A DNA stretch of 64,000 nt from Escherichia phage StefiGeyer_Bas88: the sequence record PQ850628.1. One strand, 5' to 3'. Made by a program: the position numbers and the translations under genes. Shown here in pieces: positions 32,051 through 57,156 of this stretch. How positions within the stretch are numbered: the first letter of the stretch is position 1; each line of letters starts with the position of its first letter. The notes under the pieces are model-generated. The model had not been told where the DNA came from. It saw nothing but the letters and a program-made list of their open reading frames with translations, and searched no databases.

Positions 32051-32700
32051 TATTGAATCATCCCTTGAAGATCTTCTTTATCAAAGTGCTTCTCTACTAC
32101 AGCTTCATACAGATCACGATTCTCTGCATATCGGCGATAGAAGGTTCCGTGTGAAATTCCTAACTGCTGCTGAATATGATCATGAGGTATTCCAAGGAAG
32201 AGCATAGAGAACATGCTTGCCATTTTCTTGGTATCCATAATATCACTTAAGTCTTGGAAGAAGAAAAAGATTCTAGATTCCAAGAATGGGTCTCCAGTAG
32301 AGTCATGCTTATCCATCGCAATCTCTAAAGGACTTTCCCATGAGTTCATCTCAGGGGGTCTAAACATATCAGCCTCTGGAATAGAGTAGATACGTCGGTC
32401 TCCAACTGTCTGACGGTTAGAACGAATTGACCAGATGATATTCTTAACACGATAAGTCATGTGTTCAATATCTTTTTCATCAGTGAGCAGAAGTTCTTCT
32501 TGCTTTGCAAACACAAAACGCCAAGCGTTCAGTAACACTTCCTGAGCAACATCCTCTGCTTCGTGATAATCTTTAATGTCATACATAAAATAGCGATGCA
32601 CAACTTTCCAATTCTCTCGATAGAATTCATCGAAGGTTGGATAATATTTAATAGGAATGCCATGAATACGATAGCGTGTGGGTGTTGTCTTCTTCTTCAT
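32050..32700 (-). CDS. phage-encoded sigma-70 family factor
   Basis: Region-2-like [16 protein letters not shown] and C-terminal HTH-like [22 protein letters not shown], resembling ECF-type sigma factors. Confidence 0.55.
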
Positions 32701-37015: not shown

Positions 37016-37327
37016 CTACTTCTCCACCACAAAGAGGTTAACTTCAATGAAAGTTTCGTATTGTGTTGACTCCTGCTTACGGGTGTAGTAGAAATGACGA
37101 CCTTCTAATGCACCTCCGTACTGAGTGGCACATCTTTTAACCATCTCTTTTATCACATCTACAACTGATACGCCTTTCCACGGACGTAACCCATGAGTAG
37201 GAATTTCTGCTGTGCAGGTTACTTGTGTGTAACCCACATCTTGGAGAGGTATATCAAGAATCAGTTTTGCCCAAGCATCAAAATTGAGCTTGGGATTATA
37301 TTTAACTTCAGTTTTGATATCAATCAT
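37016..37327 (-). CDS. hypothetical protein
   Basis: 103-aa ORF immediately downstream of DNA polymerase. Confidence 0.4.
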   Translation of the reverse strand: MIDIKTEVKYNPKLNFDAWAKLILDIPLQDVGYTQVTCTAEIPTHGLRPWKGVSVVDVIKEMVKRCATQYGGALEGRHFYYTRKQESTQYETFIEVNLFVVEK

Positions 37328-39174
37328 TAGTGAGTATGATTCCAGTTAAGCCCAATCTTACAATCTGATGCAAGAGGGCATTCCATCTTGAGGTATTCAC
37401 CCGCTTTACGAACACACTCCTCAGTGAGAGTGCGAAGTTTGTTAACATCGTCACGATGTACAGTGAACTGACCTTCATCATGCATGTCGATAACCTTCGC
37501 ACAACGAACACCATCACGCTCAATCCATTTATTGAGGAATAGCATTGCATACTTCATAACAATCGCCCCAGCGCTCTGTAAGAGCGTATTTAAGGCTTTG
37601 TGTGTCATGACCTTTCCTGTACCGTCACGTCTCATTGTAATACGACGACCGTCAACACCGTAGATGTATCCACTTTGTGCTTTCTCTGTCATACGTTCAA
37701 TAAGGATTGCAATACAAGGGTTCTCTGCTAAGAATCTAGCTCTCATTATAGAACCTTCATCAGCCCCACCACCAACAATACTACCTAGCTTAGCATCACC
37801 AGCTCCGTAGTTGAATGCGTAGATAAACGTCTTAGCATTATCACGGGTAGGCAAGCCAGCAAGTTTCTGGTTATGGGAGTGAATATCACCCTGTAAGAGA
37901 ATATCTCTGTACAATACGGCAGATGCTAAACCGCGTTCAGCTTCTCGTTTCTTAGCTGGGTTATTCTCTTGTTCTGCCTCTGCCAACATCTCACGACACT
38001 CTTTAATAAGGTAGTGAGCCAGCATACGCAGTTCTAACCCTGAACCATCATAACCAAGAAATACTTCATGACCAGAAGGTATGTAATATTTCAGAGCACC
38101 TATCGGTTTGTCTTTCTTGCCCGGTTTTCCCACTTCGTAGATAGTGTTTGTACCTTTTCGTACGTAACACCCATCAGGGATATGGTTGGTAATGATGATA
38201 GGATTGTGATTACTATCACTTGAGGTACAGTCAGACTGAAATAGACTGCGGCACTCGTGACCAAACAAACCGCGAGAAGGAATATTAACAACAATACGGT
38301 GTTTAAAACGAAATGTCGGAGTAGCGCAGCTATTAGCTTCGGCGGACAACTTACCATCTTCTCGTTCCTTGTCTATAAGACCATTAATCAAGCCAAGCCT
38401 ATGAGCCGCTACAACACGTCTCTTAAGCAAACTTCCCACACCCCCTAGCTCACCCCCAAGACCTTCTTCAAGCGTCTCCTCGAGGTTTGTAGGAGCTGTA
38501 GGCCATTTGTTTGACATGGCTAGAGCTTTCTTAATTTCATCAAAGGTTACAGGCTTCTTCCTGTTCGGATTCAAACCTAAACCGCTAACGTACGCTTTCA
38601 TGTAATTGACAGTGTGATAACGGAAGTGTTTATCCAAGAACCGACGAATGTCAGCGTCAATCATCTCAGCTGTCTGTTTTTCTTTAGCGTTTCCTCGCAT
38701 CCAAGCAGAATACCAAGCAGCATATGTGCCATACTTCTTCATCGCTTTACGGATTTCGTAAGTATTCCAAGGTTTCTTGGATGTGTTCCACTCTGGAGGA
38801 ATAAAGCCTTCGTCCATCAAGGCTTCTTTGATACGTGCATCTTTCGATGGGTCGAAGTCTACATACTCAACGCAAGTAAACGCCCCACCGATATCTTCTC
38901 TTTTAAGACCAACTCTGTCACAATAGAGCTGAGGCCACTTCTGTAAAGCACCTGACTTCTTAAAAGGTTTCGAATAAGTTGAACCATCCACCCGCATTTT
39001 GGGGAGGAGAGGAATCAGTTCTTTATCAATATTGACAATAATCTCTTTGAGAAGGTGAACAAACCACCGAGCGTTTCTTCTGTGGAAGTTGACGCCATGC
39101 TTCGCCTGCTTTGAGATTATATCAGCGACTGTCATCTCCGTTATGAAAGGTAACTTATCAGGGTTATCCATCAC
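37327..39174 (-). CDS. DNA polymerase, family A (polymerase domain only)
   Basis: Motif A YDGSGLELRMLAH, motif B RDNAKTFIYAFNYGAG, motif C VIDMHDEGQF; no 3'-5' exonuclease motifs in its N-terminal region. Confidence 0.85.
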   Translation of the reverse strand: MMDNPDKLPFITEMTVADIISKQAKHGVNFHRRNARWFVHLLKEIIVNIDKELIPLLPKMRVDGSTYSKPFKKSGALQKWPQLYCDRVGLKREDIGGAFTCVEYVDFDPSKDARIKEALMDEGFIPPEWNTSKKPWNTYEIRKAMKKYGTYAAWYSAWMRGNAKEKQTAEMIDADIRRFLDKHFRYHTVNYMKAYVSGLGLNPNRKKPVTFDEIKKALAMSNKWPTAPTNLEETLEEGLGGELGGVGSLLKRRVVAAHRLGLINGLIDKEREDGKLSAEANSCATPTFRFKHRIVVNIPSRGLFGHECRSLFQSDCTSSDSNHNPIIITNHIPDGCYVRKGTNTIYEVGKPGKKDKPIGALKYYIPSGHEVFLGYDGSGLELRMLAHYLIKECREMLAEAEQENNPAKKREAERGLASAVLYRDILLQGDIHSHNQKLAGLPTRDNAKTFIYAFNYGAGDAKLGSIVGGGADEGSIMRARFLAENPCIAILIERMTEKAQSGYIYGVDGRRITMRRDGTGKVMTHKALNTLLQSAGAIVMKYAMLFLNKWIERDGVRCAKVIDMHDEGQFTVHRDDVNKLRTLTEECVRKAGEYLKMECPLASDCKIGLNWNHTH

Positions 39175-39187
39175 CCACTCCTTATAA

Positions 39188-39541
39188 TTATTGGTATATT
39201 AAATCAGTGAACGCTTGGTTATCCTCGACAATATCTAACTGTTCATAGGATTCCGTTAATTCATCCACATAAAAGACTGCTGGAATATCTTCTGCTCGCT
39301 GTCTACGAGTTTCTCTTTGTTCATTGCTGTTTCTCTGAACCTGTGCAAGTTTCATACCCCACACCTGCTCATACAACTCAGGATACTTATCACTAACCAC
39401 TACAAAGTTTCGAGCTGGTTGGTTTCGGTTAATCTTCGCTGTTAATTCAATAAACTGACGAAACTCTTGAATGGAGAGGTTGTCATGAATATTGTCCCAT
39501 TTGAGAACGCAGTGACGTTCTAGGCGTTGAGGTACTGGCAT
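39188..39541 (-). CDS. hypothetical protein
   Basis: 117-aa ORF upstream of DNA polymerase. Confidence 0.4.
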   Translation of the reverse strand: MPVPQRLERHCVLKWDNIHDNLSIQEFRQFIELTAKINRNQPARNFVVVSDKYPELYEQVWGMKLAQVQRNSNEQRETRRQRAEDIPAVFYVDELTESYEQLDIVEDNQAFTDLIYQ

Positions 39542-39544
39542 AAC

Positions 39545-39814
39545 TTACTCCACTGTCGGGAAAGGTTTCAGATTGTTCATAGCTGTACGAACATCAGCAC
39601 AGATTTCAAGATCACGATAAGAAAGGAATTTTCCATCCTTACCACGAATCATTACATTAGTTCGTGCTGTTTTATTAGGCAATAAAGAAATCCCTCCAAT
39701 CAGATGGTTGGTAGGGTGTTGTCCTTGATTAACCTTGTAATCATGAGTCTGAGCATCACCATTAAAGAGATGATCACGGATTTGGATTAAGCTGATCTTC
39801 ATATTATGCACCAA
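39545..39814 (-). CDS. hypothetical protein (tandem paralog 1)
   Basis: Shares TARTNV.(I/L)RG.DGKF(L/I)S(Y/F)RD...NLKPFP with the adjacent ORF. Confidence 0.4.
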   Translation of the reverse strand: MVHNMKISLIQIRDHLFNGDAQTHDYKVNQGQHPTNHLIGGISLLPNKTARTNVMIRGKDGKFLSYRDLEICADVRTAMNNLKPFPTVE

Positions 39815-40055
39815 AGTTAGGGAAAGGTTTCAGGTTTTCAATAGACTTAGCAATACGCTTAGGAACACTCTTATCACGGAAGGAGATGAACTTGCCATCA
39901 GGACCACGAAGAGCCACGTTAGTACGAGCTGTTGTTGGGTTAAATTGAATCATCTCAACAGAGCTTGTAACATTGCTCACGGGGAAGGTGTAGCTTTCAG
40001 TTACATCCAGAAAAGGAAAGAAATCAGTTACAGTGATATAAGTTACTTTAGACAT
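39804..40055 (-). CDS. hypothetical protein (tandem paralog 2)
   Basis: Same motif as 39545-39814; overlaps it by 11 nt. Confidence 0.4.
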   Translation of the reverse strand: MSKVTYITVTDFFPFLDVTESYTFPVSNVTSSVEMIQFNPTTARTNVALRGPDGKFISFRDKSVPKRIAKSIENLKPFPNFGA

Positions 40056-40081
40056 ATTTATTACCTTAGGTTATATAAAAG

Positions 40082-40110
40082 AAAAGGCCACCCGAAATGG
40101 GTAGCCTTAT
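40082..40110 (-). terminator. terminator-like hairpin (minus strand)
   Basis: Minus-strand RNA AAGGCUACCC-AUUUC-GGGUGGCCUU, about 10-bp stem, short U-tract. Confidence 0.45.
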
Positions 40111-40111
40111 A

Positions 40112-40429
40112 TTAACTTGAGCTTAAAGCTCCTTTGCGACCGCCTGCTGATTTTCCAGCACGATCTCCACTTTTGCCGCCGTTCGAGCGATTTCCAGAGA
40201 CTGATTCAACACGTAAGTTACTTGACGCATTAGAACCTCCCGACTTGATTGATCGTTTATGTCCAACATCTTTACCTCGGACAGCAGCTTTTCCATCGCG
40301 CTTTTCAACGATGCGACGTGCACGGTGGCGCTGAGCATCTCCGCTCTTGCTACCAACGCCGGTTTCACCCCTTGCGATTGCAGTTCTTCGTTCTTGTGCA
40401 TAATCACGTTTTGCCTTATCAGTCATCAT
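40112..40429 (-). CDS. basic Gly/Ser/Arg/Lys-rich low-complexity protein
   Basis: ATG at 40429 preceded by AAGGAG; 105 aa, e.g. GGKSGDRAGKSAGGRKG. Confidence 0.45.
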   Translation of the reverse strand: MMTDKAKRDYAQERRTAIARGETGVGSKSGDAQRHRARRIVEKRDGKAAVRGKDVGHKRSIKSGGSNASSNLRVESVSGNRSNGGKSGDRAGKSAGGRKGALSSS

Positions 40430-40473
40430 AACTCCTTAATATATCAGTGTACACTAAGGAGTATACATTATGT

Positions 40474-41211
40474 TTAGGATTTTTCAGATTCCATTGCTTT
40501 AACAATAGCTTTACAGAAACCTGAACGAACAATATCATCTGACTCACCATCAACCAAAGCAGCAAACTCAAACAGGTTGTGCTTGTCAATGAAGTCAGTA
40601 GCCCATTCCAAACCACTCTCACCACGCATGTCGTGCTGGTTAGTGTCACCCATACAGAACATCTGAGAGGTTTCACCAAGACGAGTCATAATAGAATATG
40701 CTTCATCAGGAGTGGTGTTCTGAAACTCGTCAACAATCACAATAGCATCATTGAACGAACGACCACGGAGGTATTCCAGAGGTACGAACTCAATGTTACC
40801 ATTACCAATTTGACACTCGTAGAAACCTTTACCGTAACGCTGAGTAATAACATCAACGATTGGCATCAGGTATGGTTCGAACTTCTCACGCAACCCACCG
40901 GGGAGTAATCCAAGCGAGTTACCCATACCAACAGCAGGTCGGCTTAGGATAATCTTTTGAATCTTCCCACTTTTCAGAGCATCAATAACTGTTGTTGTGA
41001 TAACATAGGTCTTACCACAGCCAGCAGGAGCATCCGTAAAGACTACTTGTTTAGTCTTGATAGCATTGAGCAGTTCGGATTGAAACTGATTCTGAGGGAC
41101 TACAGGCTTAGCAAGAACAACTTCTTGATACTCACGTTTACCTTTATTAGTCACCTGTTCACCACGACGAGCTGCTTTCCGTGCTTCTCTACGAGTTTCT
41201 CTGCGATTCAT
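40474..41211 (-). CDS. phoH: PhoH-like ATPase
   Basis: Walker A APAGCGKTY, Walker B IVIVDEFQN; RBS GGAGGT. Confidence 0.8.
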   Translation of the reverse strand: MNRRETRREARKAARRGEQVTNKGKREYQEVVLAKPVVPQNQFQSELLNAIKTKQVVFTDAPAGCGKTYVITTTVIDALKSGKIQKIILSRPAVGMGNSLGLLPGGLREKFEPYLMPIVDVITQRYGKGFYECQIGNGNIEFVPLEYLRGRSFNDAIVIVDEFQNTTPDEAYSIMTRLGETSQMFCMGDTNQHDMRGESGLEWATDFIDKHNLFEFAALVDGESDDIVRSGFCKAIVKAMESEKS

Positions 41212-41389
41212 TTTCTACCTCCAAGTTCTTCATACGTGTAGCTACAGGATTTACACTCTGAACAATGAGTACCTATAACCTTAACTTCGACAAATTTCTT
41301 ATTCTTCCCTTTCGTCGGAGAGCCTTTAGCAAGCTCTCGTATTACTTTCGAGTCCAGATGGAGAAGAGTGGATTCACATTTAAAACATT

Positions 41390-41710
41390 TCAGATAGATT
41401 TGTCCTTATGTAAACGATATACTTCAGTAGCCATACAAGCAATACGCTCGTCATGAGGGAGATGCATACCAGTAGAGCCATTCCACCCATTGAACTCTGA
41501 ATCAAAGAATCCAATAGGCTCAGGATACATCTCTTGCAAAGTGGTTAAGTCATCAGCCACTTGTTGCCATTTATCATCAGACCAGATTGGGTCATCCAAC
41601 CAATAATACAAATAGGAGTGGATAAGCATCTGCGTTCTGTGTCGTTTAATCACTTCAGCAGGACTAATCTCGTTTCCGTTACCAGTCCTAAATGTATTAT
41701 CATTAATCAT
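41390..41710 (-). CDS. hypothetical protein resembling NAD-dependent DNA ligase domain Ia
   Basis: HSYLYYWLDDPIWSDDKWQQVADDLTTLQEMYPEP resembles LigA N-terminal [35 protein letters not shown]. Confidence 0.35.
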   Translation of the reverse strand: MINDNTFRTGNGNEISPAEVIKRHRTQMLIHSYLYYWLDDPIWSDDKWQQVADDLTTLQEMYPEPIGFFDSEFNGWNGSTGMHLPHDERIACMATEVYRLHKDKSI

Positions 41711-41711
41711 T

Positions 41712-41924
41712 TTAAACCTTTTCGATTTTAATTAAATCAACATCAGCCCAAATACCAACAGGTATCAGCTTCTTCTTGGATTTAAGGGCAACATCATAGA
41801 TGCTTTGCCAAGGCCAGATAAACACTTCAGAGATAATCTCATAAGGTTCAATCTTGGTGGGGTATGGATTCCTGTCTGAGATACGGAAAGTAAATCGATG
41901 TTTTCCTAATACTAAACCTTTCAT
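41712..41924 (-). CDS. hypothetical protein
   Basis: 70-aa ORF. Confidence 0.35.
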   Translation of the reverse strand: MKGLVLGKHRFTFRISDRNPYPTKIEPYEIISEVFIWPWQSIYDVALKSKKKLIPVGIWADVDLIKIEKV

Positions 41925-42134
41925 TTACTTAACCTCAATAATCCCAAGTTTCCAAACATATCCGGGAGAAGAGTCCTGAACAGCTCCGTATTGAAGAACA
42001 ACATCACAAGCATCACTACCCATACCATCTAGCATCAGCTGACCACGAGTAGGACGGTCTTTGTAATAAGTTGCTTTTACTTCTGTGTCGTGAGTCCATT
42101 CACTAAAGCATAGACTTAATTTGTAGATTCTCAT
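41925..42134 (-). CDS. hypothetical protein
   Basis: 69-aa ORF. Confidence 0.35.
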   Translation of the reverse strand: MRIYKLSLCFSEWTHDTEVKATYYKDRPTRGQLMLDGMGSDACDVVLQYGAVQDSSPGYVWKLGIIEVK

Positions 42135-42610
42135 TCCAAAACCCTTTCTTCTAAATCATAAAAGATTTGATTTGTCCCATTATTCTCAACAAGCACTGTA
42201 CCATTATCTAACAGAGTAGCAACTTGTGAATAAGGAATGTTCTTTAACATCAGAGCGTTGATGGTTGGCTTATTTTTGAAGTAAGCGACCGGTTCAACAT
42301 AGAAGGAAATCCCACGACTCCCTTTGATTGGGGTACTCGAAGATAAAACCCAAATCGTTTCTGGCTTGTCTATTTCCTTTTCAACACCAACCTCAACAAG
42401 TGAGTCAGCAGCGAAACCTACAGGACGACTAGAAGAGCCAAGTGCCCGAATAAATCCTGGCAATTTTGACATGTTAGACCAACTACCAGTGTTTTCATTA
42501 AACACAGGTCTTACGTCTCCATATGCCCAAACCAGATTATCATAGTCACGGGCTATGTATTTAACCCAATCAGGAACATCATACTCCCTTCCTTCAAAAA
42601 TAGCTTTCAT
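42131..42610 (-). CDS. hypothetical protein
   Basis: 159-aa ORF, ATGA-type overlap with the downstream gene. Confidence 0.45.
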   Translation of the reverse strand: MKAIFEGREYDVPDWVKYIARDYDNLVWAYGDVRPVFNENTGSWSNMSKLPGFIRALGSSSRPVGFAADSLVEVGVEKEIDKPETIWVLSSSTPIKGSRGISFYVEPVAYFKNKPTINALMLKNIPYSQVATLLDNGTVLVENNGTNQIFYDLEERVLE

Positions 42611-42841
42611 TTAGATAACCTTGTGCTTATAGATGTTAGGGTTGTAGTAATGCAACCAGTTTATGTATTGTTTCTGTTCGAGGTAGTGCCTGCAATCATG
42701 ACAAAAAGCATGACCCAAACCTGTTTCCTCATTCAGTTTGAAATTGATAAGAAGCTTCTGCTTTCGACAGAAGCTACATGCTTTAGTGGGCTTCACGTAA
42801 TGCATCCCAAGAGATTGGATATATTTTACGAAGCTCTTCAT
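42611..42841 (-). CDS. Cys/His-rich putative zinc-binding protein
   Basis: CSFCRKQ...HAFCHDCRH; track start 42919 overlaps thyX, so an internal Met (42841 or 42805) is more likely. Confidence 0.35.
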   Translation of the reverse strand: MKSFVKYIQSLGMHYVKPTKACSFCRKQKLLINFKLNEETGLGHAFCHDCRHYLEQKQYINWLHYYNPNIYKHKVI

Positions 42842-43433
42842 CAATTGTTGATGCGAACACTCGTACTTCGTACTGAGCATGGTCTGACAGTCGCTGACGA
42901 CACAACTCTGACCAACCATATAGAGAACCAGTCCATACCCACTCAGTGATCATACCCTGAGGTAATACGAATCGAGCTTGTTCTGGAGCAATGAACTTAA
43001 TCAATTCATCGTACGACTCAAGAGCTGTTTCATATGCTCGGTTAATCAGAACTAGTGCAGAGTTTTGTGCTCCTGTGGTGAGGAGATTCCCTGCACCTGC
43101 ATGGAGGTCCGAAGGTCTTTCAAAAATCTCTTTAGGGATGAAGAGTTCAACTGCTCCATCTTTATACCGCCGGGACATTTCGTTCCACGAGAATCCAACT
43201 TGATGCTTGCCCAACTGTCTCGCAATTGCGATTGGCGCTTTGCATCGGAAGCTAATTGTCGGATGACGGAATGGTGTGACATGCTTTTCTCTGGCAAGGA
43301 ACTTGATAAGGCGTTCATCTCGTTCATTTAACTCTCCTTCACGAGTAACCCCAAAGGAAACTCGAGCTGCATTAACAACAGATTTATCAGAACCCATTGC
43401 TTCGATTAGTGTTGCTTGTAATTGTTCATTCAT
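42783..43433 (-). CDS. thyX: flavin-dependent thymidylate synthase ThyX-like
   Basis: DKSVVNAARVSFGV, KAPIAIARQ and LSDHAQYEV resemble ThyX; the canonical RHR-x7-S signature reads KHQVGFSWNEMS. Confidence 0.7.
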   Translation of the reverse strand: MNEQLQATLIEAMGSDKSVVNAARVSFGVTREGELNERDERLIKFLAREKHVTPFRHPTISFRCKAPIAIARQLGKHQVGFSWNEMSRRYKDGAVELFIPKEIFERPSDLHAGAGNLLTTGAQNSALVLINRAYETALESYDELIKFIAPEQARFVLPQGMITEWVWTGSLYGWSELCRQRLSDHAQYEVRVFASTIDEELRKIYPISWDALREAH

Positions 43434-43447
43434 CCTTGAACTCTTCC

Positions 43448-43663
43448 TTAATAATGAATCTTTTTATAAATCATGTTGCTTCCACTTTCTGTTTCAATCC
43501 CTTTCTGAATTGTAATCTTAGAAGCGCCAGTGTTAGCAATTTTTAAAGCTCGCTTAAAGCGGCGAGCCTCTCTCCGTGTTGTATATGAGGAGAAACTAGG
43601 GATTGTGCTATCAAAATTAAACCACTTAACTGCCCAAAAAGTAATCCAAGGTTTCTTTTCCAT
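43448..43663 (-). CDS. small protein, K(V/I)HY-tail paralog family member
   Basis: 71 aa; shares W.V.(V/I)(K/R)W, TR.EAR..KK and C-terminal K(I/V)HY with 45528-45734 and 45734-45946. Confidence 0.4.
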   Translation of the reverse strand: MEKKPWITFWAVKWFNFDSTIPSFSSYTTRREARRFKRALKIANTGASKITIQKGIETESGSNMIYKKIHY

Positions 43664-43664
43664 A

Positions 43665-43940
43665 TTAAATACCTTTCAGAGCCGTGTCTAAAAATGCACG
43701 GAGATTAGATTCAGTTTGCATACCTGATAAGCTGTAATGAGCACCACTGTTCTTATCAGGGATGACAAAGGCTGGGATACTGCGAACACCATATTCAATG
43801 GCTCGCTCTCGACCATCACCTTCAGAGATATTTACTTCTTCAACTTCTACACTGTAGTCAGCCACAACCTTCTTAAACACAGGAGCCATAGCTGCACACG
43901 GAGCACATGAATTACTATAAAACTTAATTACTTTACTCAT
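43665..43940 (-). CDS. thioredoxin/glutaredoxin-like protein
   Basis: ATG at 43940; CxxC active site in KFYSNSCAPCAAMAPVF. Confidence 0.6.
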   Translation of the reverse strand: MSKVIKFYSNSCAPCAAMAPVFKKVVADYSVEVEEVNISEGDGRERAIEYGVRSIPAFVIPDKNSGAHYSLSGMQTESNLRAFLDTALKGI

Positions 43941-43941
43941 T

Positions 43942-44118
43942 CTATTCCTTGTTAATAAACAGGTTGATATGACGCTGGGTAGCAGGAACAACAATAAAAG
44001 ATTTATACTGACCTTTTGCTAAGTCATGAGCAATCTTCTTTGTCTGACCAAGACCCATCACACAGCCACTAACGATAATGGCATGTGCTTGTAATTCTTC
44101 AGGTAGGTTTAGTTTCAC
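43942..44118 (-). CDS. hypothetical small protein (58 aa, GTG start)
   Basis: GTG at 44118 preceded by AAGGAA; stop one nt before the thioredoxin ATG; fills gap between annotated ORFs. Confidence 0.3.
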   Translation of the reverse strand: MKLNLPEELQAHAIIVSGCVMGLGQTKKIAHDLAKGQYKSFIVVPATQRHINLFINKE

Positions 44119-44130
44119 TCTTTAGATTCC

Positions 44131-44316
44131 TTATAGCATACAAAGAATAATAACAAGAGGTAGTGTTATAGCAAAATGTACCAGAACAACACTACCTAGC
44201 TTGATAGCTTTAACATCCTCTTCTGCTGGGTTTTCTTTAATTGCTAAATTTCGAGCTTTATATATAACAGTACCAACTATTAACGACCACACGGCCCACA
44301 CAATCAGTGAAATCAT
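44131..44316 (-). CDS. small membrane protein (paralog 1)
   Basis: 61 aa, two hydrophobic helices; shares ENP...K.IK.GS..LV.F with 44326-44547. Confidence 0.4.
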   Translation of the reverse strand: MISLIVWAVWSLIVGTVIYKARNLAIKENPAEEDVKAIKLGSVVLVHFAITLPLVIILCML

Positions 44317-44325
44317 ATCAAACCC

Positions 44326-44547
44326 TTATGCAGTCAACAGGTGGAGAAGGAAAGGAATGACAACAGAGAAAATTACCAGAGCAATGCTGCCATGTTTAAT
44401 GGGTTTAGCATCATTCGGATTTTCTTTAAGCATCTGTTTCTGAGCCAGATAAACGATACCACCAACAAGAATTGCCCACACAGACCATACGATTGCTGAA
44501 AACATATTCACATCCTTATAAAGAAGTTCGCCCCACCTCTTAAACAA
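44326..44547 (-). CDS. small membrane protein (paralog 2)
   Basis: 73 aa, two hydrophobic helices, same motif as 44131-44316. Confidence 0.4.
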   Translation of the reverse strand: MFKRWGELLYKDVNMFSAIVWSVWAILVGGIVYLAQKQMLKENPNDAKPIKHGSIALVIFSVVIPFLLHLLTA

Positions 44548-44568
44548 AGAGACAGGGCGGAGGTTTGA

Positions 44569-45135
44569 TTAGTAAGACACGTCACCACTAGAGTGGGACA
44601 TGTTGCTCTTGACGAAGTAACAGAACTTGCCAAGACCTTCATTAATTTCTTGAAGCATACTCTGGTCTACTGGATAGGTGCACAAGTCTGAATCAAACTC
44701 GTCCATCTTTTCAATGATACACATCAGAGTCATGCACATGTCGGAAAGCATACCGTCCATGTCGAGATCAGCACTACCTTCTCTGAACCAAGCACAACTA
44801 AGATAGCTACTAGCTGTTGCATCCACTTTGATACAGTGATAACGCATTCGCTCAGCTACTCGGTCTCCTGTTTCACGAGCATAGTCTTCTAATTCATCGA
44901 ACATACCATGAACACCTTGGAAACCAGCTCCAGAGACGTTCCAGTGGTAATTCTTTGCTTTGATGTGTAGAAGCTCAAGGTTAGCCTGCACACCGCATAG
45001 GATGTGCTCTAGACTGTTACCGCTGATCAGTTTATTCATTCCCTCAAGACGAGAGATAGAGGAGTCAGTTGTAGAGAATGGGTTACTAGAACCCACTCGT
45101 GTTAGTTCAGGTAAGTCGAAGACATTATTATGCAT
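44569..45135 (-). CDS. Dps/ferritin-like protein
   Basis: ANLELLHIKAKNYHWNVSGAGFQGVHGMFDELEDYARETGDRVAERM matches the Dps pattern (N.HWNV.G..F...H..F.E.Y). Confidence 0.5.
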   Translation of the reverse strand: MHNNVFDLPELTRVGSSNPFSTTDSSISRLEGMNKLISGNSLEHILCGVQANLELLHIKAKNYHWNVSGAGFQGVHGMFDELEDYARETGDRVAERMRYHCIKVDATASSYLSCAWFREGSADLDMDGMLSDMCMTLMCIIEKMDEFDSDLCTYPVDQSMLQEINEGLGKFCYFVKSNMSHSSGDVSY

Positions 45136-45475
45136 TAGGAGTCTCTCCTTCTAAGTTAGTTGAATTAGCCACATTACGAGCAATGTTATCCATGACCTGC
45201 TGTGTAATAACAATGCAATTCTGAGGGTCTACTGATTTAGAACGCCCCATTTCAGGGTCATAGACTTTGACTCGCTTGGCTGTTGAGCCAGTAACTTGCA
45301 ACACTTTGAGAAGATAACCTTGATTTCCAATAGACCATGCAACAACATCACGATTCTTGATATAACGACCAAGCATATCACGATGATAGAACTGCTGCAT
45401 AACTTTAGCTTTGCTAATCTCTTCAGATGGCGGGGCCACTTTACTCAAATCTAACATAACTCTCTCCTGTTTCAT
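45128..45475 (-). CDS. hypothetical protein
   Basis: 115-aa ORF. Confidence 0.4.
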   Translation of the reverse strand: MKQERVMLDLSKVAPPSEEISKAKVMQQFYHRDMLGRYIKNRDVVAWSIGNQGYLLKVLQVTGSTAKRVKVYDPEMGRSKSVDPQNCIVITQQVMDNIARNVANSTNLEGETPNA

Positions 45476-45527
45476 ACAATATTCTTATACTGTATATACA
45501 TTTGAGAGTTATCATATCTACTACCAA

Positions 45528-45734
45528 CTAGTAATGAACCTTGCTAGTCAAGGATCCTGCACTGTTATTGTCACTTTGAAACCAACGATGAATCTCTACT
45601 TTTTCAGCGAGACCTAAAGCTTTTGTAGCTTTCTTAGCAAGACGAGCTTCTTGTCGAGTGTCGAATAATTTAAGACAATCACCACCAAGGTCTTTGTTAG
45701 CCCATTTAACGCGAACTGCCCATAATTTAGTCAT
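45528..45734 (-). CDS. small protein, K(V/I)HY-tail paralog family member
   Basis: 68 aa; WAVRVKW...TRQEARLAKKA...SKVHY. Confidence 0.4.
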   Translation of the reverse strand: MTKLWAVRVKWANKDLGGDCLKLFDTRQEARLAKKATKALGLAEKVEIHRWFQSDNNSAGSLTSKVHY

Positions 45735-45946
45735 TAGTAATGTACCTTTCCACTGATATAGAAACGACCTGATTTAAAGTCTTGAGCTTTGTGAATAGTG
45801 ACCTTATCAATTGTACTTTCACAGCTTAATAAGAATTTCTTATGAGCGCGAGCCTCTTGACGAGTATTCCTGATGCCCATTGATTCCGTACCACTACTCC
45901 AGCGGATACGAACGACCCAACGTCTTTTCATTGTTCCAAACTCCAT
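45734..45946 (-). CDS. small protein, K(V/I)HY-tail paralog family member
   Basis: 70 aa; WVVRIRW...TRQEARAHKKF...GKVHY. Confidence 0.4.
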   Translation of the reverse strand: MEFGTMKRRWVVRIRWSSGTESMGIRNTRQEARAHKKFLLSCESTIDKVTIHKAQDFKSGRFYISGKVHY

Positions 45947-46146
45947 TATCTGTCAACCGATTCAGGGACAAACTGCATTACACATACCTGATTACGAGGG
46001 AGATTTATTTCACAAGCAGCTTTTCTATCAGCAACCTTTGCTGATGAGTTAGGGCCTATTTGAGCCATCATTATTCCCATAGCAAACATGCCGATGATTA
46101 TGCCAATTGATAGAGATGCTACGGTTTCTTGTTTCATCTTAATCAC
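45946..46146 (-). CDS. small membrane protein
   Basis: 66 aa with hydrophobic segment SLSIGIIIGMFAMGIMMA. Confidence 0.35.
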   Translation of the reverse strand: MIKMKQETVASLSIGIIIGMFAMGIMMAQIGPNSSAKVADRKAACEINLPRNQVCVMQFVPESVDR

Positions 46147-46676
46147 ACCCCTTTAGATGCAACTACACTATTGCTACCATTGTAGCGACCCTTCACTGCA
46201 TATGAATCGTCGCCAGCGTGAGAGTGTTCAAACATAACCATCTGACCAACACGCATTCCAGCACGAACTCGTAAGCTGTGATTGTGGGTAACATTATGGA
46301 ACTCAAAGGTCAGCTTACTGTTGTTAAACCCTGCATCAGCCCAACCAGCATGGAGATGGTTTAAACCACAACGAGCCATTGAGGAGCGGAGTACAAACAG
46401 ACTTGAAATATTATCTGGAAGGTTAAACTCTTCCATTGAGTGAGCTAAGAAGAACTGTCCCGGAGTGATAACGATACCATCTTCAGGGATTTTTACTTCT
46501 TTCCACTTGAGGTTTTCTTTAGCATCAATGTCAACAATACCATCAGCCTGCTCTTCAACAAGGATAGTATCACCAATACGGATATCCACACTAGCAGCGT
46601 TAACATACTTATGCTCCGCATCTAAAAAGCCATTATCAATAACGCTGTGTAATTCTTGAGAACCTAAAAGACTCAT
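46143..46676 (-). CDS. dcd: dCTP deaminase
   Basis: dUTPase-fold motifs ASVDIRIGD, SSMARCGL, AGWADAGF; 177 aa. Confidence 0.75.
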   Translation of the reverse strand: MSLLGSQELHSVIDNGFLDAEHKYVNAASVDIRIGDTILVEEQADGIVDIDAKENLKWKEVKIPEDGIVITPGQFFLAHSMEEFNLPDNISSLFVLRSSMARCGLNHLHAGWADAGFNNSKLTFEFHNVTHNHSLRVRAGMRVGQMVMFEHSHAGDDSYAVKGRYNGSNSVVASKGV

Positions 46677-48109
46677 GAGTTTCTGTTTCCTTGTACAGAT
46701 GATGCCAAATTGTTAATCATATTACGAGCTGTTTCACGAGTTAGTGTAACACCTGCTAAGTTGTTATGAAGTTCACCAGAGAGTTCACGAGCAGTAGCCC
46801 GAAGCTCTTCACCAAGTGAAGTGTTAGAGTGAGCCAAACCATTACGACGACCAACAGGTCGAGGAGTTTCGTTAGCGTCATTAGCTAAAGATGCAAAACC
46901 AATACGAGCAGCTTCACGAGCGGCTATAGCTGCTACCCGATCTTCCGTAGGGGTTGGCAAATCACCAACCCCTACACGTTCAATATCACTAGCACGTAGA
47001 CCCTGAGTAACAGATCTTACTGTTTCCCATGAACGACGAGAGCGCTGCAAATCATCCATTGATGGAGAAGAAACAGGACGAGCAGTTCCTCCTGAGACAT
47101 GCCATGTATGGTTATGCATTCCAGAAGATCGTGCACTACCAAAACTACCGGTGAAAGTATCACGAGGTGCCATTGTACTAGGGGCTGCGAATCTTGCCTG
47201 TTGCCAAGAGTCACGTCTGTCAGTTCCCGGAGTCCAAGGCTGCGTAATTGCTTCAACACCAATAGTGGTTAACTCACTAGACCAATCTGTCTGTAGGTTA
47301 ACTTCTTCATCCAGATAGATACGACCCGCTTCCTGAGGAATATTTAATACAGTTTCCATCATCTTCAAGGTGTAGTGGCGACGTTGATTCTGATACAAGT
47401 TTACACCAGCCATAGGCCCAACTAAATCACTGATCAGATGAACTTCTGGTTCACCAAAAGCTCCCATTGCAAGGTGCATATACTCAGTAGAACTGCTGTA
47501 AACTGCAACTGTTGCTTCAGGCCACTTTTTGTGGACATACTTCATGTCACGACTTGTCACCACAGGGATATCATTAGTATATGCCATTGCAAACATACCT
47601 TCGTTCGACACATACATATCATCGAGAGTCATAAACCCTTGACAGATCATAGGGAAGCGACCGCTCAGAGTATCCATATCCAGAGGAAGGTTAATCATCA
47701 TCTGAATCTTCACTTCATCAATCTCAATTTCCAGAATCTCTTGGAAAGTGAAAAGTGCGTCAGCATAAGTTGTCCCACTAACAGGCTGGACTAAACGAGA
47801 TGTAACTTGAAGTCCCTTACTCTCTGTCCAAGACAAGAAGTTGTCAAGGAACAGTGCAGCATTACCCACGTTAGCAGGGCTGTTTTCCTGACGAGTGTTC
47901 CAACGAAACCCTCCTTGAACTAGGAAGATATCAACATCATTCGGAGTTCGGTTCTGGAAGAACGTATCACGGATAGCACCACCTGCAATAACAGGATAAA
48001 TACCATCAGGGACTACGTTATCTCTGATCAAATTACGAATCAGGTCAAGCCCTACGCTGAGGGCTTCTCCTTCTTGAAGGTTCAATTCAGACAATGGAAT
48101 CTTAATCAT
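46673..48109 (-). CDS. nucleotidyltransferase (CCA-adding enzyme / poly(A) polymerase-like head domain) with low-complexity C-terminal region
   Basis: AGGAIRDTFFQNRTPNDVDIFLV matches the class II tRNA nucleotidyltransferase GGAVRD...DxD motif; C-terminal 200 aa Ser/Arg/Thr-rich. Confidence 0.5.
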   Translation of the reverse strand: MIKIPLSELNLQEGEALSVGLDLIRNLIRDNVVPDGIYPVIAGGAIRDTFFQNRTPNDVDIFLVQGGFRWNTRQENSPANVGNAALFLDNFLSWTESKGLQVTSRLVQPVSGTTYADALFTFQEILEIEIDEVKIQMMINLPLDMDTLSGRFPMICQGFMTLDDMYVSNEGMFAMAYTNDIPVVTSRDMKYVHKKWPEATVAVYSSSTEYMHLAMGAFGEPEVHLISDLVGPMAGVNLYQNQRRHYTLKMMETVLNIPQEAGRIYLDEEVNLQTDWSSELTTIGVEAITQPWTPGTDRRDSWQQARFAAPSTMAPRDTFTGSFGSARSSGMHNHTWHVSGGTARPVSSPSMDDLQRSRRSWETVRSVTQGLRASDIERVGVGDLPTPTEDRVAAIAAREAARIGFASLANDANETPRPVGRRNGLAHSNTSLGEELRATARELSGELHNNLAGVTLTRETARNMINNLASSVQGNRNS

Positions 48110-48111
48110 TT

Positions 48112-48660
48112 CTACATTTTCCAGTTGAGAGATGGGGGATTCTTATAATCAAATCCAGCCATTTGGCAAAGACACATGTAAACCTTAACTGTCAAGTTAA
48201 CGTCTTGCTCACAATACGTGAACATGTCTTCAGTGAAAGCATCCCATGCTTCTTCCTGCTCACCATAATCACCCTTTAGCTCACCCAGAAATTCGCCCCA
48301 TTGCTTGAGGCCATGACCACGAGGGCCATGTCTTGGGTCGCCTTTGGGATATTCTGGATTGTCTCCAATACGGTCAGGCTTGAGATAACGACTCAGGCAA
48401 AGTGTATCGAAAACATTGAAACGGAAGGGTGTTACATGAGAGTAGAATTTAAAGAGAGCTGGTAGGTCAAAATCTATGATATTGTGTCCTACAACTACAT
48501 CAGCTTCCTTCAGTTTGTGAAGAGCTTCTTCAATTTGGTGAGGGCGATACCCCCACCGCTCTCCTGAGAGAATATCAAATATCCAGATACACCAGACATT
48601 TTGGATACCCTCATAAAGATTATCACCCTCAATATCGAAGGCGAATATTTTCTTTACCAA
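48112..48660 (-). CDS. DEDD-type 3'-5' exonuclease (probable proofreading subunit)
   Basis: Exo [10 protein letters not shown], Exo [13 protein letters not shown], Exo [11 protein letters not shown]; immediately downstream of primase-helicase. Confidence 0.7.
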
Positions 48661-50444
48661 GGTCGTGCCTCCCCGTCTTGTGTTAGAAGGGAAGCTGCAT
48701 CTTCACCATTGGTTAAGACAAACGGATTAGCTTCATCAACTTCATGATCTTCTCGTTCTACAAGACGACCTGTTTCGTTGATGTATTTGGTGTAGCAAAC
48801 ACCTGTCTGACCATAGTTACGCTCCTTAAGGAGACGTATGATTGACAAATTCTTGCCTAACCCATCTGCTTGCTTATCTCGTTCAAAACCGATGATACAC
48901 TGACACCAACGCATCAGTGAACGTGAACCAGTGAACTGAACCTCTTTCACCTGTCCACCTTCTTCGTGAGGAGCACCACCTGCCGGAGCATTCAAGTGAG
49001 ATAATACAAAAGCAGTGAAGTCTAATTCCTTACACATACCAGCAAGCTCTGAGGCAATCTTACTGATTTCTGTATTCACTTCAGAAGGAGTTAGGTGAGA
49101 TACCAATGCAGTGATGTTATCAAGAATGATAAACTTACATTGATTCTCAACTACCCAAAAGCGAATACACTGCTTAATATCATCCCACTCATTCTGACCG
49201 AAGTTATCATACAAGAAGAATTTATCAGCATAACGAAGTGCTTCATCACGTAGCTGAGATTCCTCATATTCAACATCAGGTCGGTGGAAAGGTACAGATG
49301 CTGACTTACCTGCAATGTTTTTAACAGACATGCCTACCTTCTCTTCCAAGAAGAAGCCACCACCATTAAACCCATGTTCAAGGCAAAGCCATGCTACCAG
49401 TTCGTGTGCTATCAGGGTTTTACCTGAACCAACACCACCACCGATTGCAACCATCTCTCCCCAACGAATGCCGAAGGTCATTTCATTCAGAGTTTTCCAC
49501 GGATAAGGAATACCCCACTCTGCTTTCTTCAGAGCATCTTCTAAACAATCAAAGACAGTAACAGCACCAGCAGGTGATTCCCGCTTCGCTGAATACTTCA
49601 GATTGTTGAATAACTCTTGACCTCGACCAGCGAGTAACATGTCATTTGCATCTTTGATTTCCTTCTCTTGACCATTGTAAGCGAAGGTTCCTTTCGGAAT
49701 ACGAGCAAATTTAACATGGGGATATAATGCACGACCTTTAGTTAATGCAATCTCACCTGCATCATCATTATCCATGCAGAGCACAATCTCCTCAAAACCA
49801 TTCAAGAAGTCACGGTTACGTGAGAGAACGGAAGAGATTGAACCTGCACCAAACGGTAGAGATACACACGCAGGTTTGATGTTTGTAGCGTTCGTGAACG
49901 CAGTGAGCACATGGAAGCCAGACATACAAGAGAGTGGGTCTTCAAAGATGAAGAGTTTCTTGTTGTACACGTCACCACGTTGTGCTTGAGCCATACCGAA
50001 TAGGTCAGCTTCTTTAACACTGCCGATGTAATAGAATTTCTTGCTGTCTAGAAGCTTAACTTCATAGCCAACAATGTTTCCATCACGTTCACGAGGGAAG
50101 AAGTAACTATCAGGAGTTTGCCCATCTGTCTGACTCAAACCGATACGACATTCATATCGTTCAGAGACAGCTTTAGGAATCAAACGACGAGTAAGCTCAC
50201 CCTGAGGTAGCTCTAAGCAATCGTCTAAGATCTCTCGGAGTTCTTCAGGGGATAGTTCTTTCTTCTCATTCGGTGTAGGAGTTGTTCCCTTTTCGAAAAC
50301 TTCATAACTACCACAGCGATTACAACTGCCCCACTCTTCACCGGACTCTTCATTTCGGAAGAGAATCATGTGATTGTGGGTCTTATCACGACCATGAGAG
50401 ATACATTCTTTACAACCTGTATCCCCTAAAATGATCTTTGACAT
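48654..50444 (-). CDS. DNA primase-helicase (T7 gp4-like)
   Basis: N-terminal zinc finger CKEC...CNRCGS, TOPRIM-like MDNDDAG, Walker [10 protein letters not shown], Walker B FIILDNI. Confidence 0.85.
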
Positions 50445-50480: not shown

Positions 50481-50687
50481 TCAATAAAACGAACGTATTT
50501 CTTCCCACACATCATCTTGAAGATTTTTAAAACCCTGTAAAGCTGATTGGGTTCTCATGATAAAGTCTTCAGAATGTTTATTGCGGTCAAGCATACTGAC
50601 AAACTTGTCATAGCGGTTAATCTTCCACCGTAACTTTAAGTAGTCAGACTCGAGCTTTCTCAGCTTCTGTCGCTCAGTTACTGTCAT
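50481..50687 (-). CDS. hypothetical protein
   Basis: Start taken as internal ATG at 50687 (track start 50786 overlaps the upstream gene by about 110 nt). Confidence 0.35.
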   Translation of the reverse strand: MTVTERQKLRKLESDYLKLRWKINRYDKFVSMLDRNKHSEDFIMRTQSALQGFKNLQDDVWEEIRSFY

Positions 50688-51105
50688 CCTGATCACCTGC
50701 CAGATACGCTGTCCAGTCGCCAGATTCAACCAAAACATCTTGTTCTTCGTCGATATGATAAATCCATGCTTCCACAGTCTCGCCATTATCCAGCACCACT
50801 GGAATCAGTGTACGATTGTAGAAAGTGTATGGATTGTCTTTACCACGATAACCTTCCAGACCGTCATACGGACCTTCCAGACCAGCTTGGGTTGTTTCAA
50901 AGACTTCTACACGAACAGGCTTGCCATTGCTGTCATGCACCAGAGATACACTTGGGAAGTATGCTGTGCAATACTGATACAGGTTACAGTTGTTCACTGT
51001 CCAACCTTCACCAATAGACACACCACCTGCACGAGCATTGATAGCGTGGTTGTGTTGACCTTTACGAAGAGAACCATACGTTGCAACTAATACTTTATCA
51101 GACAT
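50674..51105 (-). CDS. gamma-glutamyl cyclotransferase-like (AIG2/GGACT fold) protein
   Basis: N-terminal YGSL motif (VLVATYGSLRKG), about 143 aa, downstream acidic residues consistent with GGCT-like fold. Confidence 0.55.
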   Translation of the reverse strand: MSDKVLVATYGSLRKGQHNHAINARAGGVSIGEGWTVNNCNLYQYCTAYFPSVSLVHDSNGKPVRVEVFETTQAGLEGPYDGLEGYRGKDNPYTFYNRTLIPVVLDNGETVEAWIYHIDEEQDVLVESGDWTAYLAGDQDDSN

Positions 51106-51140
51106 TATATTACCTTTTGTGTTTCAGTTAAATTCGAACT

Positions 51141-51162
51141 AGCCTCCTCTTTCGAAGAGGCT
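51141..51162 (-). other. stable RNA hairpin with GNRA tetraloop, no U-tract
   Basis: Minus-strand RNA AGCCUCUUC-GAAA-GAGGAGGCU (9-bp stem, one G-U) in the intergenic gap between 51171-51356 and the GGCT-like gene. Confidence 0.35.
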
Positions 51163-51170
51163 AAAGCAAA

Positions 51171-51356
51171 TTATTCTACTTCGAAGTGTTTGATCACACC
51201 AGTCAATACATCAGATTGGAACGTACCTACTAACTCTGCGCCTCGGAAGAAATTGACATTTGTTCCAAGTGTTTCAAAGCGTTCTGCTTGAATGTCCAGA
51301 GATTGAATATTCCCTTCTGAGTTTACTGTACGAAACATGATTGTGTATTTATTCAC
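51171..51356 (-). CDS. hypothetical protein
   Basis: 61-aa ORF, ATGA coupling with the upstream gene. Confidence 0.35.
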   Translation of the reverse strand: MNKYTIMFRTVNSEGNIQSLDIQAERFETLGTNVNFFRGAELVGTFQSDVLTGVIKHFEVE

Positions 51357-51595
51357 AGAGTTGTTACTCCCTTATCTTCTTGTGCAATTGCGATGATACG
51401 CTCAACACATTCCATTGAATATTTATCACCTCGTTTAAGGAAGGTGACAATTGCAGAGAACTGATTACCAATCATTCTCTTGTTTGTGATTCCAAACTCT
51501 TCACAGAGTTGGTTAATAGCTTTACGAGAACCAACAATCAGAGGTTCTTTTTGTTCGGTCATTCCACGACTGATCAAATCTTCGATAGACAACAT
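51353..51595 (-). CDS. hypothetical protein
   Basis: 80-aa ORF. Confidence 0.4.
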   Translation of the reverse strand: MLSIEDLISRGMTEQKEPLIVGSRKAINQLCEEFGITNKRMIGNQFSAIVTFLKRGDKYSMECVERIIAIAQEDKGVTTL

Positions 51596-51615
51596 TACAA
51601 ATTCCTTTTGTTTAA

Positions 51616-52863
51616 TTACAGAGTTACTGCTACTTCACTACCTTCAACAGTTACAGACTCTAACTTACGAGGGTTGTGGACTTGTTGCGGATGAACCGGA
51701 ACGTTCCAGCCACTGCGGTAGAAGTTACGACCATCGCAGAACAGAATGACATTGGCAGACATTGCATTAGGTTGCAGGTTGTTATGAACATGACGAATAT
51801 CTGCAATCCAGTAACCACGAGACAACACATAACCAGTAGGTGCATTACGGATTGTCTGAGTATTCATCTGACCTTCCAGTTGCATTTCTTCAGGAACTAC
51901 ATCCACTGAATCAACCGGCTGTGCGACTTGGCCTTCCAGTGCGAAGTTTTCATCATCAGCACTTTCACTGTCAGCAACCAATTCACCATCTCCATCTTCA
52001 ATTGGAGCTTCAACAGGTGTTGCATAAACCACTTTATACTGAGGAGTATAGAGAGGGTTTTGAGCTTTAACAAACTCAAGGATATTGTGACGGTAGATAT
52101 CCAGAGTTGTGCCAGTTAGGCCCGGTGCTGTATTAACTTCCAGTACCCATGCTTCTTGACCTTTGGTGATGATATCAACTGCACCGAAATCTAGACCCAT
52201 TGATTCAACAGCTTTCACTGCGTTGATCAGAGAGGCATCGTTCGGAACGTCTGTGAAGGAACTTGAGTAAACCCAACCAGTGTGATGGTTACGAACATCT
52301 TCACGATAGTTAGGGTCTTCACGATAACCGTTACGACGAATCTTTTTCTGAACATAGGTGATAGCACCTTTGAACACATGGACACGCCATTCACGACGTG
52401 GGCCTAGAATACCTTTGGTGTACAGTTCAGCTTGACCAACTGAATCACGAGGCTCTACAACAATGATACCTGAACCAGAGTGACCAGTCAGTTCATGACG
52501 TTCATACACAATGTTGCCAGAGTTTGACCACTCCTGAGCAGTTGATTGAACATCTGTATACTCAACAGTTTTAACACCTGCTTGGTCCATTACACTGAAA
52601 GCGCGACGTTTGTTCGCTGCCATATGTAAGGCTGCGGTACGGTTAAGAACAGTTGCAGAACCAAAGAAGGATTCAGGATAGCGACGGTTCCCGTAGTTCA
52701 CAACCACATCACCCTCACGAGAACGCCAGCGACTGTTCTCTGAAAGAAGACCCATTACGTTAGCGTTGATACGTTCATCACGGATAGTATCGTTAATGGC
52801 AGTTACCAGAGCGTTAACAGAATCAGAAGGGCCATACGGAAGAACACGGATACGAGTAGTCAT
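51616..52863 (-). CDS. ATP-grasp family ligase with C-terminal extension
   Basis: RimK/glutathione-synthetase-like core incl. AWVLEVNTAPGL; about 150-aa acidic C-terminal extension. Confidence 0.6.
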   Translation of the reverse strand: MTTRIRVLPYGPSDSVNALVTAINDTIRDERINANVMGLLSENSRWRSREGDVVVNYGNRRYPESFFGSATVLNRTAALHMAANKRRAFSVMDQAGVKTVEYTDVQSTAQEWSNSGNIVYERHELTGHSGSGIIVVEPRDSVGQAELYTKGILGPRREWRVHVFKGAITYVQKKIRRNGYREDPNYREDVRNHHTGWVYSSSFTDVPNDASLINAVKAVESMGLDFGAVDIITKGQEAWVLEVNTAPGLTGTTLDIYRHNILEFVKAQNPLYTPQYKVVYATPVEAPIEDGDGELVADSESADDENFALEGQVAQPVDSVDVVPEEMQLEGQMNTQTIRNAPTGYVLSRGYWIADIRHVHNNLQPNAMSANVILFCDGRNFYRSGWNVPVHPQQVHNPRKLESVTVEGSEVAVTL

Positions 52864-52865
52864 TT

Positions 52866-53096
52866 TTAGATACCTTTTAGTTTAAGAATTTCGTTACGAC
52901 AGGATTGAATTTTAACTTCGATTTCCCAATACTTGGCGAACATCTCGTCTTCTTGGTCATCGCTTGGTGAATCAATTAGGTTAAAAGCAAACGGATACAG
53001 CTTTCGCTGCTCCGTTACCAGTTGTTGAAGTCGGAGTTGTTGATACTCCAGCATTGTCAGGTGAGGCTTAGCTCCCTTGCTTGACATGAGGCTCAA
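52866..53096 (-). CDS. hypothetical protein
   Basis: 76-aa ORF within cassette. Confidence 0.35.
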   Translation of the reverse strand: MSLMSSKGAKPHLTMLEYQQLRLQQLVTEQRKLYPFAFNLIDSPSDDQEDEMFAKYWEIEVKIQSCRNEILKLKGI

Positions 53097-53301: not shown

Positions 53302-53312
53302 AACTTCACCTC

Positions 53313-55346: not shown

Positions 55347-55423
55347 TTTCTAATCCACCTGAAGGGTAAACCCTTTCATCTAATTAACCTTTAAATGCGC
55401 CCTTTATCAGAGCGCCCATTGTG

Positions 55424-57147: not shown

Positions 57148-57156
57148 GATAACACC

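Follow-up and report, generated by a model that had tools for sequence, protein, structure and literature searches.

The DNA of Escherichia phage StefiGeyer_Bas88 (sequence record PQ850628.1) raises the question of whether this phage makes its family A DNA polymerase as two separate proteins and, if it does, how the two would work together. In the 64,000-nucleotide stretch analyzed here, to which we refer as the window, the original prediction had placed a 3'-5' exonuclease gene directly after a primase-helicase gene and a polymerase gene about 9 kb and about twenty genes away, and had proposed that the two encode the parts of a single T7-type polymerase. Both open reading frames (ORFs) were found on the minus strand, which holds all large ORFs from ~30 to 64 kb. 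The first, at 48112-48660, encodes a stand-alone DEDDy 3'-5' proofreading exonuclease subunit of 182 residues, equivalent to residues 1-200 of T7 gp5, and the second, at 37327-39171, a family A polymerase subunit of 614 residues with thumb, palm, and fingers and with no exonuclease domain, equivalent to gp5 residues 201-704. The two domains are not on a single polypeptide: an interval of 8,937 bp (39175-48111), 93.5% of it coding and holding 22 non-overlapping minus-strand ORFs, separates the genes, in agreement with the predicted distance and gene number.

The exonuclease gene does follow the primase-helicase gene directly. The latter (48654-50444, minus strand) encodes a T7 gp4-type protein of 596 residues (PHROG 239, expectation value, E, 7e-174; Pfam DnaB_C and Toprim_2), and its stop codon is overlapped by the start of the exonuclease gene, the two sharing 7 nucleotides. 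The exonuclease start codon is TTG, with the Shine-Dalgarno sequence GGGGAGG 7 nucleotides upstream. For the polymerase, the predicted gene of 615 residues at 37327-39174 stands as an ORF when read from GTG, but an ATG is located one codon further in, at 39171, with AAGGAG 6 nucleotides upstream; since this start also agrees with the Bas86 annotation, the protein most likely has 614 residues and not 615. Judged by the identity of its polymerase, 99.5% to that of Escherichia virus TH43, 96% to that of ECBP2 (Gordonclarkvirinae, Suseptimavirus), and ~86% to those of the kuravirus-like phages NJ01 and SGF2, the phage is a member of the phiEco32-like coliphages (Gordonclarkvirinae, Suseptimavirus), with an elongated (C3-type) head.

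We then asked whether the two proteins correspond to contiguous halves of one enzyme, as had been claimed. The exonuclease matched Pfam DNA_pol_A_exo1 (E 4e-6) and PHROG 38876 and 403 (E 8e-66 and 8e-38, respectively), both named "DNA polymerase exonuclease subunit," and the polymerase matched PHROG 17 (E 1e-81) and Pfam DNA_pol_A (E 3e-24). On the PHROG 17 DNA polymerase profile, the exonuclease occupied positions 670-826 and the polymerase positions 837-1233, that is, adjacent segments. By BLASTP, exonuclease residues 5-157 aligned with T7 gp5 residues 1-178 (32% identity, E 1.5e-15) and polymerase residues 193-615 with gp5 residues 318-704 (E 9e-39), with a second collinear segment in which polymerase residues 54-135 matched gp5 residues 283-362; similarities of this size are far above chance for both proteins. 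When the exonuclease and polymerase sequences were concatenated and aligned with gp5 (MAFFT), they were collinear with it along the full length, and in an alignment of 10 sequences, fused relatives among them, the exonuclease ended at gp5 position 200 and the polymerase began at position 201. We take this position to be the linker between the exonuclease domain (residues ~1-187) and the first thumb helix. The alignments to gp5 thus bear out the claim and support the assignment of the two proteins to adjoining parts of one T7-type family A polymerase.

Both halves retain intact catalytic residues. The exonuclease carries Exo I (D9/E11), Exo II (H59-N60...D65), and Exo III (Y149...D153), and its DEDDy residues were invariant in 33 stand-alone homologs with identities to the window protein down to 36%. 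The polymerase carries motifs A (D375), B (R443/K447/Y451), and C (H564-D565-E566), which align with T7 D475, R518/K522/Y526 (Y451 corresponding to Y526), and H653-D654-E655, and the catalytic residues of these three motifs were invariant among 62 polymerases. Conservation was also found on both sides of the break: in the exonuclease tail, beyond the catalytic core, F170, P175, and P176 are nearly invariant, and the first polymerase helix is conserved at E12, I18, Q22, and G26. The AlphaFold model of the polymerase had a predicted local distance difference test (pLDDT) score of 91.1, opened with two long helices like those of the gp5 thumb, and had T7 polymerase as its best fold match (Foldseek) in the PDB (E 6e-26). 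To judge from these sequences and models, both halves look functional.

A nuclease of the RNase D or RNase T type placed next to a polymerase with its own exonuclease motifs would have given a different picture. Among PDB sequences, the exonuclease matched only T7 polymerase at E < 1. In a Foldseek search of the PDB with its model, matches 1-27 were all T7 polymerase chains (E 6e-10 to 6e-8), followed by exonuclease domains of family B polymerases and diDNase at ~1e-4. A tblastn search matched 1,665 phage records, and among the matches listed, those with an informative feature name were all a DNA polymerase, a polymerase exonuclease subunit, or an exonuclease. In a library of 1.8 billion proteins, the top matches were stand-alone homologs of ~140-180 residues, while lower down more short proteins were mixed with the N termini of fused polymerases of 600-700 residues. 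RNase D, RNase T, and DnaQ/epsilon did not come up as the closest relatives in either the sequence or the structure searches. For the polymerase, residue 1 corresponds to gp5 residue 201 and DNA_pol_A is the sole Pfam match, so that it has no exonuclease of its own. The prediction of a polymerase-type exonuclease missing from the polymerase chain was therefore upheld on both counts.

These results bear directly on the possibility that the small protein is an independent nuclease, either a free proofreader acting in trans or an enzyme of recombination, repair, or host DNA breakdown, which would form no stable complex with the polymerase, and that the polymerase is naturally exonuclease-free. 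The distance of 8.9 kb between the genes, with the terminator-like hairpins described below between them, would fit such a nuclease, as would the confidence with which the exonuclease is modeled alone (pLDDT 92.8); isolated domains of the Klenow fragment likewise keep their separate activities. Against this stand the specifically T7-polymerase type of the exonuclease, unlike RNase D/T or DnaQ, the near invariance of F170, P175, and P176 beside the break, the almost equal numbers of phage records matching the polymerase and the exonuclease at 60% identity or more (98 and 97, respectively), and the predicted docking of the split polymerase pair of cyanophage S-SBP1 in the manner of the unsplit enzyme. 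On balance, we regard an independent nuclease as unlikely.

Another possibility is that there is no real split, with the two genes arising from a sequencing or assembly artifact or a pseudogene, or with RNA splicing, frameshifting, or a split intein bringing the halves back together. Splicing does occur in this polymerase gene family, since related phages carry group I introns there. In the window, however, 22 intact ORFs lie between the halves, the two genes each have a separate Shine-Dalgarno sequence and start codon, the same arrangement is conserved among ~97 sequenced phages and many metagenomic contigs, and the halves meet exactly at the gp5 linker, with no room for intein sequence. The chance that the split is not real thus seems negligible. 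Two particular forms of rejoining were considered and rejected. A split intein or trans-splicing was discarded since, in the gp5 alignment, the C terminus of the exonuclease is followed immediately by the N terminus of the polymerase and neither carries extra, unaligned sequence. A frameshift fusion of the primase-helicase with the exonuclease was discarded as well: the exonuclease is read in the -1 frame relative to the helicase, and this frame is open for at least 30 nucleotides upstream of the TTG, but no slippery site was seen and a strong Shine-Dalgarno sequence is present.

To determine the age and spread of the split, we compared the two proteins with their homologs. All 35 close exonuclease homologs were small (105-195 residues); truncation of the genes does not explain this, since many of them are encoded on contigs 50-114 kb long. 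The ~95 nearest polymerase clusters were all exonuclease-less (437-618 residues), among them the "DNA polymerase part II" of Bruynoghevirus (40% identity across 99% of the protein). It was only lower in the list that fused polymerases appeared, aligning with just the C-terminal ~60%. In the polymerase alignment, each of the 44 exonuclease-less proteins began 0-6 residues from Met1 of the window protein; the break in GAP52 fell in the same alignment column as that in the window, and that in PaP3 was 4 residues away. A single, old fission is indicated by a simple neighbor-joining tree, in which a single branch divides 18 fused from 44 exonuclease-less polymerases. The comparison with related genomes that had been proposed as a check thus found split forms common to the relatives, with the fused forms across one branch of the tree.

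The surroundings of the two genes are conserved as well. The window shares with PaP3, GAP52, and metagenomic contigs the gene order COOH-NH2 ligase, amidoligase, glutamine amidotransferase, RimK-like ligase, gamma-glutamyl cyclotransferase, primase-helicase, exonuclease, and, further on, polymerase. The primase-helicase and exonuclease genes overlap by 7 nucleotides in the window, 38 in PaP3, and 4 in GAP52, and the exonuclease gene also directly follows and overlaps the primase-helicase gene in Bas86, ECBP2, SU7, and the metagenomic contigs L007, L009, and L010. The distance from the exonuclease to the polymerase gene, on the other hand, varies widely, from 1.66 kb with 6 small ORFs in PaP3 and 1.68 kb in L010, through 3.2 kb in L009 and 8.5 kb in GAP52, to 8.9 kb with 22 ORFs in the window and >10 kb in L007. 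The simplest reading of these sequences is one old fission at the domain linker, with the gap later filled by cargo genes. The cargo would have included genes for dCTP deaminase, ThyX, thioredoxin, the Nlig-Ia domain protein, PhoH, the nucleotidyltransferase, in some genomes NrdD, and homing endonucleases.

We consider it quite probable that the phage has a two-polypeptide T7-type polymerase, which arose long ago by one fission in the linker and whose parts re-associate noncovalently into a gp5-like enzyme. The polymerase gene would have been cut once, in the linker at gp5 residue ~200, and the gap would then have gained nucleotide-metabolism genes and small cargo genes. The exonuclease would be translated by coupling to the primase-helicase gene, as suggested by the gene overlap kept in the window, PaP3, and GAP52, and the polymerase core from a gene 8.9 kb further along the same strand. 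The two proteins would most likely bind each other without covalent linkage to give a gp5-like enzyme, which would therefore proofread as T7 polymerase does; the strong conservation of the catalytic residues and of the residues beside the break is consistent with such binding. Work on the split polymerase of the S-SBP1 cyanophage offers a parallel, as its AlphaFold complex superposes on the unsplit relative and family A polymerases were noted to need the exonuclease domain generally for stability (PMC10201439). The phage's own thioredoxin may join the gp5-like enzyme: its gene (43665-43940, minus strand) encodes 91 residues from ATG with a CAPC motif (Pfam Thioredoxin, E 7.5e-13) and is kept in the corresponding interval in GAP52 and contig L007. 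It is thus a candidate processivity partner of the polymerase, a role that has been proposed for thioredoxin in the related phage Privateer (PMC7881722).

Several observations weigh against this proposal or parts of it. We found no biochemistry, including complex formation, of a phiEco32- or LUZ24-type two-subunit polymerase in the literature, and the tree from which the single old fission is read carries no support values. The thioredoxin-binding region (polymerase residues 64-135, aligned with gp5 residues 295-362) is ~27 residues shorter than that of T7, and an attempt to model the S-SBP1 polymerase with host thioredoxins by AlphaFold failed (PMC10201439); for these two reasons the role of thioredoxin is uncertain. 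Furthermore, the stretch from the exonuclease gene to the polymerase gene contains two terminator-like hairpins, so that the two proteins may be translated from separate transcripts and differ in amount. The first hairpin (40084-40108, minus strand; 10 pairs followed by a T-run) is intergenic, directly downstream of an ORF of 105 residues, just where SU7 has an annotated terminator. The second (44529-44559, minus strand; 13 pairs, 7 of them G-C) was identified by a consensus match alone. Between 37 and 51 kb, terminator-like sites showed no excess over chance (11, compared with 9.2 in shuffled sequence), and promoter-like sites were fewer than in shuffled sequence (20, compared with 29.8).

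The hairpins and the gene overlap also invite the idea that the split lets the phage control proofreading apart from synthesis, the exonuclease being made with the helicase and the polymerase behind the terminator-like hairpins, perhaps in another amount or at another time. We consider this improbable. If it were true, fidelity could be adjustable during infection, or one helicase-bound exonuclease could serve several polymerase molecules, and the proofreading subunit of this family A polymerase would be truly exchangeable, in a way comparable to the alpha and epsilon subunits of Pol III. A related idea is that the main anchor of the exonuclease in the replisome is the primase-helicase, with which it is coupled in translation, and not the polymerase, so that the exonuclease would serve both leading- and lagging-strand polymerases. 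The stop/start overlap in the window, PaP3, and GAP52 would accord with it, and so would the C-terminal tail of the helicase (48654-48750, minus strand), which is acidic with an aromatic last residue; the tail of T7 gp4, which it recalls, ends in Phe and binds the polymerase. However, the order of helicase and then polymerase is simply inherited from T7-like ancestors, so that the coupling of helicase and exonuclease may be a leftover, and in T7 what the tail of the helicase binds is basic patches on the polymerase rather than the exonuclease domain. A helicase-held exonuclease therefore appears very improbable, and we retain the re-associating two-polypeptide polymerase as the preferred reading.

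The same organization can be followed through the known systems. The phiEco32-/kuravirus-like phages ECBP2, SU7, Bas86, YF01, and phiEco32 have the same layout as the window, with the primase-helicase, an exonuclease of 182 residues, ~21-22 genes, and a polymerase of 614 residues, and the closest members of the group share 95-99% protein identity with it. They differ in a few small spacer genes and, in the case of ECBP2 and SU7, in the presence of a putative group I intron with an HNH gene at motif C of the polymerase gene, which the window lacks. The LUZ24/PaP3/tf group (Bruynoghevirus, "DNA polymerase part I / part II") has the same gene order, including the amidoligase/amidotransferase/cyclotransferase block, and a break within 4 residues of that in the window, but the short gap in PaP3 has none of the thioredoxin, ThyX, and dCTP deaminase genes. 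The S-SBP1-like cyanophages also encode a T7-like family A polymerase in separate exonuclease and polymerase genes, with a shortened thioredoxin-binding region (PMC10201439); there, however, the genes are adjacent and overlap through a recent frameshift, whereas 8.9 kb separates the window genes, whose fission is old and has been inherited widely. T7 itself has the same fold and catalytic motifs in both halves and its polymerase gene likewise follows that of the primase-helicase, but gp5 is one chain of 704 residues, whereas the window polymerase part has three extra insertions and the shorter thioredoxin-binding region noted above. T7 uses the thioredoxin of its host, while the window phage has a gene of its own.

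The polymerase genes of relatives are interrupted at two places. In ECBP2 and SU7, an insert of 607 bp with an HNH endonuclease gene (locus L002, 908-1514) sits exactly between the His and Asp codons of motif C; the Rfam group I intron model matched it along its full length, although the match was weak and fell below the curated threshold (27 bits, E 3e-4). The window polymerase gene has no insert at the equivalent site, H564|D565 (37479/37480). A related metagenomic contig of 77 kb has, where motif B ends, an ORF-less group I intron of ~305 bp (locus L011, 4354-4669; Rfam RF00028, 102 bits, E 3e-27), and the equivalent site in the window (~37806-37808, codon ~455) is likewise free of an intron. 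The motif B intron accounts for the many polymerase fragments of 437-460 residues among the homologs.

As to the genes between the halves, profile matches identified a nucleotidyltransferase, a dCTP deaminase, a Dps/ferritin-like DNA-binding protein, the thioredoxin, ThyX, an Nlig-Ia domain protein, and a PhoH-like ATPase (all within 39175-48111, minus strand), the others being small ORFs with no recognized function; this annotation agrees with that of phages Bas86, ECBP2, and SU7. The "nucleotidyltransferase" (46673-48109, minus strand), whose gene comes directly after that of the exonuclease, has 478 residues, matches PHROG 12715 (E 1e-162), and has no Pfam match; it shows the GG..RD...DVD head typical of Pol-beta-type nucleotidyltransferases and a long tail rich in Ser, Arg, and Gly. 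A protein of 106 residues (41390-41710, minus strand) is the NAD+-binding Ia domain of NAD-dependent DNA ligase alone (Pfam Nlig-Ia, E 1e-33). In public records it is called "DNA ligase," yet it is far too short for one, and in contig L009 it is kept just upstream of the polymerase gene.

Outside the interval, a separate 5'-3' exonuclease gene (FEN / T7 gp6-like; 30643-31485, minus strand) was found downstream of the polymerase gene (PHROG 107, E 5.5e-60; the Pfam 5_3_exonuc_N match was weak, E 6.5e-6, and under the curated cutoff). The third Pol I-type activity is thus on a gene of its own in this phage. Also downstream of the polymerase gene is a gene for a phage sigma-factor-like protein (32050-32700, minus strand; PHROG 1740, E 3e-44). 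The block upstream of the primase-helicase gene, encoding the COOH-NH2 ligase, amidoligase, GlmS-like amidotransferase, RimK-like ATP-grasp ligase, and gamma-glutamyl cyclotransferase, extends over 50674-60132 on the minus strand; one paper cites a suggested role in cell wall modification to block superinfection.

The observation of a two-gene polymerase and its interpretation are correct, but both have already been annotated and published for this phage group. The small gene is called "DNA polymerase exonuclease subunit" in the GenBank/RefSeq records of ECBP2 and Bas86, and according to the 2023 description of phage YF01, all kuravirus-like phages have separate genes for the polymerase, the 3'-5' exonuclease, and the 5'-3' exonuclease, as do phages 7-11, Privateer, Vp_R1, and BUCT695 (PMC9965538). 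For the LUZ24 group, the separation is stated in the 2012 paper on phage tf, in which a similar report is credited to the 2008 paper on phiEco32 (PMC3517423). The adjacent, recent fission in the S-SBP1-like cyanophages was called the first in family A polymerases (Czernecki et al., Nucleic Acids Research [NAR], 2023; PMC10201439); the window-type fission is older and more extreme, yet it is not new. What may go slightly beyond the cited papers is the break point shared by Bruynoghevirus, Gordonclarkvirinae, Grimontviridae (GAP52), and uncultured relatives, and the growth of the gap from 1.7 kb to >10 kb.

For this family of phages, the finding means that a family A replicase tolerates full genetic separation of its proofreading domain, and that such a separation can last over a long span of evolution. 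The gap that separates the halves is a collecting site for nucleotide-metabolism genes, and the split-polymerase phages are a natural system in which to learn how a family A polymerase and its exonuclease recognize each other.

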